Source: Escherichia coli O127:H6 str. E2348/69
GTDB taxonomy: Bacteria; Pseudomonadota; Gammaproteobacteria; Enterobacterales; Enterobacteriaceae
Assembly (NCBI RefSeq): GCF_000026545.1
Contig: NC_011601.1
Reading direction: 5' to 3' (one strand)
DNA: 64,000 bases
The notes beneath the pieces are model-generated. The model was not told the origin of the DNA. It did no database searches and saw only the letters and a list, made by a program, of their open reading frames with translations. Shown piece after piece: positions 48,685 to 55,235 of this stretch. Both the position numbers and the translations under genes were made by a program. Within the stretch, counting starts at the first letter, position 1, and each line of letters opens with the position of its first letter.

Positions 48685-49778
<1,094 letters not shown>

Positions 49779-49781
49779 GCC

Positions 49782-50210
49782 ATGGCCAGAGCGCGTGGAC
49801 GAGGTCGTCGCGATCTCAAGTCCGAAATCAACATTGTACCGTTGCTGGACGTACTGCTGGTGCTGTTGCTGATCTTTATGGCGACAGCGCCCATCATCAC
49901 CCAGAGCGTGGAGGTCGATCTGCCAGACGCTACTGAATCACAGGCGGTGAGCAGTAATGATAATCCGCCAGTGATTGTTGAAGTGTCTGGTATTGGTCAG
50001 TACACCGTGGTGGTTGAGAAAGATCGCCTGGAGCGTTTACCACCAGAGCAGGTGGTGGCGGAAGTGTCCAGCCGTTTCAAGGCCAACCCGAAAACGGTCT
50101 TTCTGATTGGTGGCGCAAAAGATGTGCCTTACGATGAAATAATTAAAGCACTGAACTTGTTACATAGTGCGGGTGTGAAATCGGTTGGTTTAATGACGCA
50201 GCCTATCTAA
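49782..50210 (+). CDS. tolR: Tol-Pal system protein TolR
   Basis: 142-aa ExbD/TolR-family ORF. Confidence 0.96.
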   Translation: MARARGRGRRDLKSEINIVPLLDVLLVLLLIFMATAPIITQSVEVDLPDATESQAVSSNDNPPVIVEVSGIGQYTVVVEKDRLERLPPEQVVAEVSSRFKANPKTVFLIGGAKDVPYDEIIKALNLLHSAGVKSVGLMTQPI

Positions 50211-50274
50211 ACATCTGCGTTTCCCTTGCTTGAAAGAGAGCGGGTAACAGGCGAACAGTTTTTGGAAACCGAGA

Positions 50275-51477
50275 GTGTCAAAGGCAACCGAACAAAACGA
50301 CAAGCTCAAGCGGGCGATAATTATTTCAGCAGTGCTGCATGTCATCTTATTTGCGGCGCTGATCTGGAGTTCGTTCGATGAGAATATAGAAGCTTCAGCC
50401 GGAGGCGGCGGTGGTTCGTCCATCGACGCTGTCATGGTTGATTCAGGTGCGGTAGTTGAGCAGTACAAACGCATGCAAAGCCAGGAATCAAGCGCGAAGC
50501 GTTCTGATGAGCAGCGCAAGATGAAAGAGCAGCAGGCTGCTGAAGAACTGCGTGAGAAACAAGCGGCTGAACAGGAACGCCTGAAGCAACTTGAGAAAGA
50601 GCGGTTAGCGGCTCAGGAGCAGAAAAAGCAGGCTGAAGAAGCCGCAAAACAGGCCGAGTTAAAGCAGAAGCAAGCGGAAGAGGCGGCAGCGAAAGCGGCG
50701 GCAGATGCTAAAGCGAAGGCCGAAGCGGATGCTAAAGCTGCGGAAGAAGCAGCGAAGAAAGCGGCGGCAGACGCGAAGAAAAAAGCAGAAGCAGAAGCCG
50801 CCAAAGCCGCAGTCGAAGCGCAGAAAAAAGCCGAGGCTGCTGCGGCGGCGCTGAAGAAGAAAGCTGAAGCGGCAGAAGCAGCTGCAGCTGAAGCAAGAAA
50901 GAAAGCGGCAACCGAAGCTGCTGAAAAAGCCAAGGCAGAAGCTGAGAAGAAAGCGGCTGCTGAAAAGGCTGCAGCTGAAAAGGCAGCAGCTGATAAGAAA
51001 GCAGCGGCAGAAAAAGCCGCCGCAGACAAAAAAGCGGCAGCGGCAAAAGCAGCAGCTGAAAAAGCCGCTGCAGCAAAAGCTGCCGCAGAGGCAGATGATA
51101 TTTTCGGTGAGCTAAGCTCTGGTAAGAATGCACCGAAAACGGGGGGAGGGGCGAAAGGGAACAATGCTTCGCCTGCCGGGAGTGGTAATACTAAAAACAA
51201 TGGCGCATCAGGGGCCGATATCAATAACTATGCCGGGCAGATTAAATCTGCTATCGAAAGTAAGTTCTATGACGCATCGTCCTATGCAGGCAAAACCTGT
51301 ACGCTGCGCATAAAACTGGCACCCGATGGTATGTTACTGGATATCAAACCTGAAGGTGGCGATCCCGCACTTTGTCAAGCTGCGTTGGCAGCAGCTAAAC
51401 TTGCGAAGATCCCGAAACCACCAAGCCAGGCAGTATATGAAGTGTTCAAAAACGCGCCATTGGACTTCAAACCGTAA
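50275..51477 (+). CDS. tolA: Tol-Pal system protein TolA (GTG start); 400 aa with a shorter Ala/Lys/Glu repeat domain than I recall for K-12
   Basis: GTG-initiated ORF SKATEQNDKLKRAIIISAVLHVILFAALIW…; long domain II of KAAAE/KKAAA repeats; conserved C-terminal domain. Confidence 0.93.
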   Translation: MSKATEQNDKLKRAIIISAVLHVILFAALIWSSFDENIEASAGGGGGSSIDAVMVDSGAVVEQYKRMQSQESSAKRSDEQRKMKEQQAAEELREKQAAEQERLKQLEKERLAAQEQKKQAEEAAKQAELKQKQAEEAAAKAAADAKAKAEADAKAAEEAAKKAAADAKKKAEAEAAKAAVEAQKKAEAAAAALKKKAEAAEAAAAEARKKAATEAAEKAKAEAEKKAAAEKAAAEKAAADKKAAAEKAAADKKAAAAKAAAEKAAAAKAAAEADDIFGELSSGKNAPKTGGGAKGNNASPAGSGNTKNNGASGADINNYAGQIKSAIESKFYDASSYAGKTCTLRIKLAPDGMLLDIKPEGGDPALCQAALAAAKLAKIPKPPSQAVYEVFKNAPLDFKP

Positions 51478-51609
51478 TCGCGATGTTGACTGTTCCGACG
51501 GTCAACATCAGGCACCGGTTGCCACGGGGTTCTGGTAGTTTTGTGTATTTTAGTTTGTTAACATTCTGCTAAATTATCGTGGGCCATCGGTCCAGATAAG
51601 GGAGATATG

Positions 51610-52902
51610 ATGAAGCAGGCATTACGAGTAGCATTTGGTTTTCTCATACTGTGGGCATCAGTTCTGCATGCTGAAGTCCGCATTGTGATCGACAGCGGTG
51701 TAGATTCCGGTCGTCCTATTGGTGTTGTTCCTTTCCAGTGGGCGGGGCCTGGTGCGGCACCTGAAGATATTGGCGGCATCGTTGCTGCTGACTTGCGTAA
51801 CAGCGGTAAATTTAATCCGTTAGATCGTGCTCGTCTGCCACAGCAGCCGGGTAGTGCGCAGGAAGTACAACCAGCTGCATGGTCCGCGCTGGGCATTGAC
51901 GCTGTGGTTGTCGGTCAGGTCACTCCGAATCCGGATGGTTCTTACAATGTCGCTTATCAACTGGTTGACACTGGCGGCGCACCGGGTACTGTACTTGCTC
52001 AGAACTCGTACAAAGTGAACAAGCAGTGGCTGCGTTATGCTGGTCATACCGCCAGTGACGAAGTGTTTGAAAAACTGACCGGTATTAAAGGTGCGTTCCG
52101 TACCCGTATTGCCTACGTTGTTCAGACTAACGGCGGTCAGTTCCCGTATGAACTGCGCGTATCTGACTATGACGGTTACAACCAGTTTGTCGTTCACCGT
52201 TCACCGCAACCGCTGATGTCTCCGGCGTGGTCACCAGACGGTTCTAAACTGGCTTATGTGACCTTCGAAAGCGGTCGTTCCGCGCTGGTTATTCAGACGC
52301 TGGCAAATGGCGCTGTACGTCAGGTGGCTTCATTCCCGCGTCACAACGGTGCACCTGCATTCTCGCCAGACGGCAGCAAACTGGCATTCGCCTTGTCGAA
52401 AACCGGTAGCCTGAACCTGTACGTAATGGATTTGGCTTCTGGTCAGATCCGCCAGGTAACTGATGGTCGCAGTAACAATACCGAACCGACCTGGTTCCCG
52501 GACAGCCAGAACCTGGCATTTACTTCTGACCAGGCCGGTCGTCCGCAGGTTTATAAAGTGAATATCAACGGCGGTGCGCCACAACGTATTACCTGGGAAG
52601 GTTCGCAGAACCAGGATGCGGATGTCAGCAGCGACGGTAAATTTATGGTAATGGTCAGCTCCAACGGTGGGCAGCAGCACATTGCCAAACAAGATCTGGC
52701 AACGGGAGGCGTACAAGTTCTGTCGTCCACGTTCCTGGATGAAACGCCAAGTCTGGCACCTAACGGCACTATGGTAATCTACAGCTCTTCTCAGGGGATG
52801 GGATCCGTGCTGAATTTGGTTTCTACAGATGGGCGTTTCAAAGCGCGTCTTCCGGCAACTGATGGACAGGTCAAATTCCCTGCCTGGTCGCCGTATCTGT
52901 GA
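51610..52902 (+). CDS. tolB: Tol-Pal system periplasmic protein TolB
   Basis: 430 aa from [21 protein letters not shown] (signal peptide), beta-propeller. Confidence 0.96.
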
Positions 52903-52912
52903 TAATAATTAA

Positions 52913-53458
<546 letters not shown>

Positions 53459-53467
53459 GAGAATTGC

Positions 53468-54259
53468 ATGAGCAGTAACTTCAGACATCAACTATTGAGT
53501 CTGTCGTTACTGGTTGGTATAGCGGCCCCCTGGGCCGCTTTTGCTCAGGCACCAATCAGTAGTGTCGGCTCAGGCTCGGTCGAAGACCGCGTCACTCAAC
53601 TTGAGCGTATTTCTAATGCTCACAGCCAGCTTTTAACCCAACTCCAGCAACAACTCTCTGATAATCAATCCGATATTGATTCCCTGCGTGGTCAGATTCA
53701 GGAAAATCAGTATCAACTGAATCAGGTCGTGGAGCGGCAAAAGCAGATCCTGTTGCAGATCGACAGCCTCAGCAGCGGTGGTGCAGCGGCGCAATCAACC
53801 AGCGGCGATCAAAACGGTGTGGCGGCATCAACGACGCCGACAGCTGATGCTGGTACTGCGAATGCTGGCGCGCCGGTGAAAAGCGGTGATGCAAACACGG
53901 ATTACAATGCAGCTATTGCGCTGGTGCAGGATAAATCCCGCCAGGATGACGCAATGGTGGCATTTCAGAATTTCATCAAAAATTACCCTGATTCAACTTA
54001 CCTGCCAAACGCCAATTATTGGCTGGGTCAGTTAAACTACAACAAGGGTAAAAAAGATGATGCGGCGTATTATTTTGCTTCGGTAGTGAAAAACTATCCG
54101 AAGTCACCGAAGGCTGCAGATGCGATGTTTAAAGTCGGCGTCATCATGCAGGACAAAGGTGACACCGCAAAAGCGAAAGCCGTATACCAGCAGGTTATCA
54201 GTAAATACCCTGGTACTGATGGCGCTAAACAGGCGCAAAAACGTCTGAACGCTATGTAA
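53468..54259 (+). CDS. cpoB: Cell division coordinator CpoB (YbgF), TPR protein
   Basis: 263-aa ORF with signal peptide, coiled-coil and C-terminal TPR repeats. Confidence 0.93.
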   Translation: MSSNFRHQLLSLSLLVGIAAPWAAFAQAPISSVGSGSVEDRVTQLERISNAHSQLLTQLQQQLSDNQSDIDSLRGQIQENQYQLNQVVERQKQILLQIDSLSSGGAAAQSTSGDQNGVAASTTPTADAGTANAGAPVKSGDANTDYNAAIALVQDKSRQDDAMVAFQNFIKNYPDSTYLPNANYWLGQLNYNKGKKDDAAYYFASVVKNYPKSPKAADAMFKVGVIMQDKGDTAKAKAVYQQVISKYPGTDGAKQAQKRLNAM

Positions 54260-54422: not shown

Positions 54423-54498
54423 GGGTCGTTAGCTCAGTTGGTAGAGCAGTTGACTTTTAATCAATTGGTCGCAGGTTCGAATCCTGCACGACCCACCA
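54423..54498 (+). tRNA. lysT: tRNA-Lys (anticodon UUU)
   Basis: 76-nt GGGTCGTTAGCTCAGTTGGTAGAGCAGTTGACTTTTAATCAATTGGTCGCAGGTTCGAATCCTGCACGACCCACCA with encoded CCA. Confidence 0.95.
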
Positions 54499-54533
54499 CT
54501 AACATAGTTAGTTGTAGTATCCAGCGTAGTATC

Positions 54534-54609
54534 GGGTGATTAGCTCAGCTGGGAGAGCACCTCCCTTACAAGGAGGGGGTCGGCGGTTCGATCCCGTCAT
54601 CACCCACCA
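54534..54609 (+). tRNA. valT: tRNA-Val (anticodon UAC)
   Basis: 76-nt GGGTGATTAGCTCAGCTGGGAGAGCACCTCCCTTACAAGGAGGGGGTCGGCGGTTCGATCCCGTCATCACCCACCA. Confidence 0.95.
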
Positions 54610-54611
54610 CC

Positions 54612-54687
54612 GGGTCGTTAGCTCAGTTGGTAGAGCAGTTGACTTTTAATCAATTGGTCGCAGGTTCGAATCCTGCACGACCCACCA
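54612..54687 (+). tRNA. lysW: tRNA-Lys (UUU)
   Basis: Identical 76-nt tRNA-Lys sequence. Confidence 0.95.
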
Positions 54688-54738
54688 CTAATGACGGTGG
54701 GTTCGGTGGAAGTAGTTTGTAGTATCCAGCGCAGTATC

Positions 54739-54814
54739 GGGTGATTAGCTCAGCTGGGAGAGCACCTCCCTTACAAGGAGGGGGTCGGCGGTTCGATCCC
54801 GTCATCACCCACCA
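54739..54814 (+). tRNA. valZ: tRNA-Val (UAC)
   Basis: Identical 76-nt tRNA-Val sequence. Confidence 0.95.
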
Positions 54815-54817
54815 CTC

Positions 54818-54893
54818 GGGTCGTTAGCTCAGTTGGTAGAGCAGTTGACTTTTAATCAATTGGTCGCAGGTTCGAATCCTGCACGACCCACCA
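54818..54893 (+). tRNA. lysY: tRNA-Lys (UUU)
   Basis: Identical 76-nt tRNA-Lys sequence. Confidence 0.95.
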
Positions 54894-54941
54894 ATTTTAA
54901 ACATTGGTTCCGAGTAGAAATCTTTCAGGTAACACCCGTAT

Positions 54942-55017
54942 GGGTCGTTAGCTCAGTTGGTAGAGCAGTTGACTTTTAATCAATTGGTCGCAGGTTCGAA
55001 TCCTGCACGACCCACCA
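54942..55017 (+). tRNA. lysZ: tRNA-Lys (UUU)
   Basis: Identical 76-nt tRNA-Lys sequence. Confidence 0.95.
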
Positions 55018-55050
55018 TCCTGAATGATTAAAGCAGCATAATCCCGCAAG

Positions 55051-55126
55051 GGGTCGTTAGCTCAGTTGGTAGAGCAGTTGACTTTTAATCAATTGGTCGC
55101 AGGTTCGAATCCTGCACGACCCACCA
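55051..55126 (+). tRNA. lysQ: tRNA-Lys (UUU)
   Basis: Identical 76-nt tRNA-Lys sequence; first copy of the 109-bp tandem unit. Confidence 0.95.
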
Positions 55127-55159
55127 TCCTGAATGATTAAAGCAGCATAATCCCGCAAG

Positions 55160-55235
55160 GGGTCGTTAGCTCAGTTGGTAGAGCAGTTGACTTTTAATCA
55201 ATTGGTCGCAGGTTCGAATCCTGCACGACCCACCA
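55160..55235 (+). tRNA. tRNA-Lys (UUU), extra eighth gene of the array (second copy of the 109-bp tandem unit)
   Basis: Identical 76-nt tRNA-Lys sequence preceded by the same 33-nt spacer as the previous gene. Confidence 0.93.

Follow-up and report, generated by a model that had tools for sequence, protein, structure and literature searches.

In Escherichia coli K-12, the repeat tract of TolA, the force-transducing subunit of the Tol-Pal system, has already been studied experimentally. Domain II of TolA is an extended helix whose rigidity is important in force transduction, and the SHLS motif of domain I binds the TolQR motor (PMC10666116). In gamma-proteobacteria domain II is far longer than the periplasm is wide (PMC12204202), and the same article states, citing Schendel et al. 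(1997), that partial deletions of this domain are tolerated until its reach becomes insufficient. In strain MG1655, the tract is made up of 13 imperfect units, which are 15 or 18 bp long and each have a sequence of their own (PMC3477136). A survey of 234 isolates by the same group (Zhou, Vanoirbeek, Aertsen and Michiels, Res Microbiol 2012, PMID 22659144) revealed 8 to 16 units, with 13 units in 66% of the isolates, according to the figures quoted from it in PMC3477136.

The functional consequences of unit number were described by Zhou, Michiels and Aertsen (PLoS One 2012; PMC3477136) using isogenic K-12 strains with 2, 6, 8, 13, 26, and 39 units, all of which were partly or fully functional. 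A higher number of units led to a higher tolerance to deoxycholate, over orders of magnitude, and the tolerance to SDS and osmotic stress was that of the wild type. At high salt and pH 5, the strains with 6, 8, and 13 units performed best, and plating of phage fd on each of the variants with a unit number other than 13 reached 28–43% of the wild-type value. Contractions of the tract were observed at a frequency of 6.9e-5, which was reduced to 15% of this value in a recA mutant, whereas a uvrD mutation raised it 3.3-fold. No contraction involved units 12 and 13, which form the end of domain II proposed to bind CpoB/YbgF. The authors argued that the number of units is subject to opposing selective forces (PMC3477136).

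We analyzed the tolA locus in a stretch of 64,000 nucleotides, hereafter called the window, which derives from the EPEC strain E2348/69 and showed 100% identity to NZ_CP059840.2 in a megablast search. The ybgC-tolQ-tolR-tolA-tolB-pal-cpoB cluster is complete in the window (48685..54259, plus strand). Its features are listed below with their window positions; the genes next to tolA were assigned from the list of open reading frames and from RefSeq, in which the identical locus of E2348/69 is annotated.

48685-49089, plus strand: ybgC
49086-49778, plus strand: tolQ
49782-50210, plus strand: tolR
50275-51477, plus strand: tolA coding sequence, 1203 bp with the stop codon, intact and in frame (list of open reading frames and RefSeq annotation)
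50314-50373, plus strand: domain I, N-terminal transmembrane helix (about residues 14-33), same as in K-12 according to the alignment, with limits estimated from the hydrophobic stretch
50812-50814, plus strand: codon 180, GTC (Val) in the window versus GCC (Ala) in K-12
50950-51090, plus strand: variable repeat tract with nine imperfect units of 15 or 18 bp, residues 226-272, from the unit parse
50974-50978, plus strand: deletion junction with GCTGA microhomology, at which 63 bp are absent compared to 13-unit alleles, from a prefix/suffix comparison with the SCU-124 allele
51184-51468, plus strand: domain III, C-terminal globular domain (residues 304-398), Pfam PF06519
51610-52902, plus strand: tolB
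52937-53458, plus strand: pal
53468-54259, plus strand: cpoB

The open reading frame at 50275..51477 (+) in the program-made list starts with GTG and encodes 400 amino acids, and the identical 1203 bp of E2348/69 are annotated in RefSeq as tolA (WP_000030660.1). The only stop codon is located at the 3′ end of the gene. The NCBIfam equivalog model NF007065 matched residues 1-400 of the encoded protein with 579.5 bits (cut-off 213) and TIGR02794 matched it with 306.5 bits (cut-off 59.45). The four residues of the SHLS motif in domain I (S18, H22, L29, and S33) are all kept in the alignment to K-12 TolA. Domain III was matched by the full PF06519 profile (positions 1-96, E = 1.8e-38) and its sequence is the same as in K-12.

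In K-12 MG1655, tolA (b0739, NP_415267.1) comprises 1266 bp and encodes 421 amino acids, which makes the TolA protein of the window 21 residues shorter. Both lengths given in the preliminary description of this DNA, 400 residues for the window (list of open reading frames and RefSeq) and about 421 for K-12 (b0739), were correct, and its assignment of the difference to the Ala/Lys/Glu-rich helical repeats was borne out by the alignment to the reference. The entire length difference is a single gap of 21 residues after residue 227, within the Ala/Lys/Glu(Asp) repeats. At the DNA level, it appears as one clean in-frame gap of 63 bp that corresponds exactly to K-12 units 2-5, i.e., 21 codons. The interval 50600-51100 proposed earlier for closer inspection does contain the tract but is too broad, the variable part being limited to 50950-51090 and the junction to 50974-50978.

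When parsed into Lys-initiated units, the tract of the window reads KAAAE KAAAE KAAAD KKAAAE KAAAD KKAAAA KAAAE KAAAA KAAAE. The same parse of the K-12 tract yielded 13 units, the first six being KAAAE KAAAD KKAAAE KAAAD KKAAE KAAAE and units 7-13 KAAAD KKAAAE KAAAD KKAAAA KAAAE KAAAA KAAAE. Tandem Repeats Finder reported 9.2 copies with a 15-bp period for the window (50945-51089) and 13.3 copies for the K-12 tract. Apart from the gap, the two proteins are nearly the same: operon position, start codon, and domains I and III agree, and the alignment shows identity at 399 of 400 positions. The sole amino acid substitution is A180V, and V180 is also present in the related alleles of SCU-124, SCU-116, 22KM0354, and 382634_2f in our panel. 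Eighteen codons outside the gap differ from K-12 tolA, 17 of them synonymously. We are highly confident that the gene is the normal, presumably functional tolA of E2348/69, and that it represents a natural allele with nine units in domain II which originated from a 13-unit allele by a single contraction of 63 bp.

To place this allele within the species, we used megablast and found tolA in 5,425 of 5,426 complete E. coli genomes. Gene length was determined for a sample taken at even spacing down the ranking of the 5,425 genomes, which provided 54 rows with full query coverage. In 40 of these (74%) the gene has a length of 1266 bp, and in the other 14 its length differs. Eleven lengths occurred in this sample (1143, 1185, 1203, 1212, 1215, 1227, 1251, 1260, 1266, 1272, and 1299 bp) and further ones, 1188, 1335, and 1338 bp, among the best matches listed. 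In the sample and the best matches listed, lengths thus extended from 1143 to 1338 bp, and all of them are multiples of 3. The eight length-variant alleles that we retrieved are each annotated as intact tolA. In a panel of ten alleles, variation was confined to one zone of domain II, and domain I, domain III, and the last eight units were invariant. These data confirm that about a quarter of E. coli have a TolA length other than 421 amino acids and that such a length is not unusual. With nine units, the tract of the window lies within the natural range of 8 to 16, as this range is quoted in PMC3477136.

Some of the other alleles had features of their own. In the O157-type and RM10740 alleles (1185, 1215, and 1143 bp), the deletions reach upstream of the classical 13-unit tract and remove roughly ...ATEAAEKAKAEAEKK... 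and more. This fits the report that less conserved upstream units also join in deletions (PMC3477136). The 1338-bp tolA gene of strain 382634_2f encodes a TolA protein of 445 amino acids with about 17 units, which is above the maximum of 16 units quoted from the survey, and an unusual KKQKKY stretch lies in its extra block. We also considered a constraint on heptad phase, as 21 residues equal three heptads, and rejected it because the deviations of other natural alleles from 421 amino acids are -41, -27, -18, -17, -13, -5, -2, +2, +11, and +24 amino acids.

The tolA allele of strain SCU-124 (WP_000030657.1) has 13 units, shows no mismatch to the window allele at the aligned bases, and carries an extra 63 bp. 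Since the SCU-124 allele equals the window allele plus 63 bp, the latter can be described as an SCU-124-type allele after one contraction. The sequence at the 63-bp junction is GGCTGCAGCTGAAAAGGCAGCAGC, and the position of the breakpoint relative to the SCU-124 allele is ambiguous by 5 bp (GCTGA). The 13-unit parent allele contains no exact direct repeat longer than 20 bp; two 20-mers of this maximum length are located 78 bp apart, and two higher-order units of 78 bp are identical at 67 of 78 positions. The 63-bp deletion, comprising four units, is one unit out of register with this 78-bp period, and at the junction the two higher-order copies are joined at different GCTGA motifs, the second one in the first copy and the first one in the second copy. 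According to this anatomy, a 13-unit allele was most likely converted to the nine-unit allele by one in-frame contraction of 63 bp with the loss of four units (21 amino acids), and the contraction probably resulted from misalignment of two GCTGA motifs inside the repeats.

The polymorphism described by Zhou et al. (PMC3477136) concerns the same tract, the same 15- or 18-bp units, and the same kind of in-frame change in unit number, and units 12 and 13 are kept in the window as in all contractions reported there. The two differ in the event itself: the dominant event in the laboratory was a deletion of five units (78 bp), whereas four units (63 bp) with a microhomology of 5 bp were lost in the window. 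A natural counterpart of the laboratory event is the SCU-116 allele (WP_000030656.1, 8 units), which differs from the window allele at three bases and lacks 78 bp owing to an in-register deletion of five units, corresponding to the deletion in most laboratory revertants of Zhou et al. (PMC3477136). Given the very short and out-of-register exact homology at the junction of the window, the contraction is more likely to reflect replication slippage or recombination at short homologies than the RecA-driven 78-bp event, judging from junction anatomy alone.

A query of 100 bp centred on the junction matched with at least 99% just three of the 5,426 genomes, all derived from E2348/69, so the junction is private to this strain within the collection. 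The exact 400-residue TolA protein, looked up both as the DNA-derived version and with an explicit Met start, had no entry in a collection of 15 billion proteins. Three assemblies of E2348/69 or its derivative, which were deposited separately and represent one strain lineage, contain the identical 1203-bp tolA gene: NZ_CP059840.2, NZ_LT827011.1 ('E2348/69 variety 2', obtained from the Sanger Centre through Imperial College), and NZ_LT903847.1, which belongs to a construct made from variety 2. One alternative is that E2348/69 acquired the contraction while it was passaged in the laboratory and that the original isolate of 1969 lacked it. Contractions do occur at about 7e-5 in culture (PMC3477136), and every genome carrying the junction derives from one laboratory strain. 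However, the junction is found in two distinct stock lines, CP059840.2 and 'variety 2', and must therefore be older than their separation; moreover, no selection for shortening is known in ordinary culture. An origin during passage thus seems unlikely to us.

With respect to function, the nine-unit TolA retains the SHLS membrane anchor, the last eight units including units 12 and 13, and domain III, which binds TolB, colicins, and g3p. As these parts are kept, the link that the protein provides between the TolQR motor and the outer membrane should be preserved. An α-helix rises by 0.15 nm per residue. If the tract forms a straight α-helix, the stalk would be about 3 nm shorter (21 × 0.15 nm), or roughly 9% of the helical region, and it would still reach TolB-Pal. 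The expected effect is modest, namely a lower tolerance to deoxycholate, a lower plating of filamentous phages, and a normal tolerance to SDS and osmotic stress, the integrity of the envelope being unaffected in other respects; this estimate was interpolated from the engineered 8-unit and 13-unit strains in the K-12 background, with the 8-unit strain expected to be closest. The suggestion in the preliminary description that repeat-length polymorphism in the helical domain could affect the span of TolA and the uptake of phages and colicins agrees with PMC3477136, with regard to the effects on deoxycholate tolerance and phage fd as well as the range of 8 to 16 units quoted there.

The effects observed in K-12 also permit a more far-reaching proposal, in which the nine-unit allele is the selected state of a contingency locus, favoured in the E2348/69 lineage through altered bile-salt tolerance or reduced uptake of phages and colicins, and not a neutral or slightly deleterious variant. 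The number of units shifts deoxycholate tolerance by orders of magnitude in K-12 and also influences fd plating (PMC3477136), contractions (6.9e-5) are frequent enough to be selected on, and the opposing selective forces argued for by Zhou et al. (PMC3477136) would be in line with this idea. On the other hand, the junction is limited to a single strain lineage in the collection of 5,426 genomes and shows no sign of spread or recurrence, and alleles with 13 units are by far the commonest, accounting for 74% of our sample and, in the figures quoted from the survey, for 66%. In addition, shorter tracts lower the tolerance to deoxycholate, which is hardly an advantage in the gut. We therefore regard a selected state as improbable, and it is equally doubtful that the strain-private contraction measurably retunes the envelope of E2348/69, with less bile-salt tolerance and less uptake of Ff phages or group A colicins, and has been kept by selection in this EPEC lineage. 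If this were true, tolA would be a working contingency locus in a pathogen.

An assembly artefact, by which near-identical repeats were merged and the true gene has 13 units like that of K-12, had been raised in the preliminary description and can be dismissed as extremely improbable: the tract is indeed repetitive and the missing block a whole number of units, but the three assemblies of the E2348/69 lineage agree, the units are imperfect, each of them unique in sequence (PMC3477136), with a longest exact repeat of 20 bp and higher-order units identical at only 67 of 78 positions, the tract of about 200 bp in total is within ordinary read length, a loss of 63 bp out of register with a microhomology of 5 bp was observed instead of the expected in-register loss of 78 bp, complete genomes commonly carry in-frame length variants, and published work has verified such variants by PCR and sequencing (PMC3477136). 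The tract thus shows neither the long similar repeats nor the in-register loss that characterize a collapse. Since exact repeats in the parent allele do not exceed 20 bp, a collapse is very unlikely, and the shorter TolA of E2348/69 is real and reflects neither an annotation nor an assembly problem.

The natural nine-unit allele is a real instance of an already known and experimentally studied repeat polymorphism of tolA. It is ordinary, because variation in repeat number is common in E. coli and was described and tested in 2012. A search for strain-specific literature on E2348/69 revealed nothing relevant. Only small details are new: the 63-bp junction is out of register and, among complete genomes, is restricted to E2348/69. 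The significance beyond bookkeeping is little, but those who use E2348/69 for work on bile salts, colicins, filamentous phages, or Tol-Pal should be aware that its TolA stalk has nine units compared to 13 in K-12.

The DNA surrounding tolA was compared with that of SCU-124 and SCU-116. Use of SCU-124 as a clonal relative to date the deletion was rejected: the DNA flanking tolA is just 98.2-99.5% identical to the window, which indicates that the strains are not clonal. Despite this divergence of the flanks, the SNP background of tolA, including V180, is 100% common to the window and SCU-124. This difference suggests either that the tol-pal core is better conserved than the DNA around it or that strains have exchanged it. 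In blastn searches with a 21-kb segment of the window, the initial ~4.4 kb did not align to SCU-124 or SCU-116. Between sucD and cydA lies a gene for a tetratricopeptide-repeat protein, which carries a frameshift according to the annotation of SCU-124 (segment 2661-3778) and is intact in SCU-116. Downstream of the 3′ end of cpoB, the window contains an array of eight tRNA genes (54423-55235; Lys, Val, Lys, Val, Lys, Lys, Lys, Lys), whereas the array of SCU-124 contains seven, the window having one more tRNA-Lys(UUU). This array represents a second tandem copy-number polymorphism, located about 3 kb from tolA.
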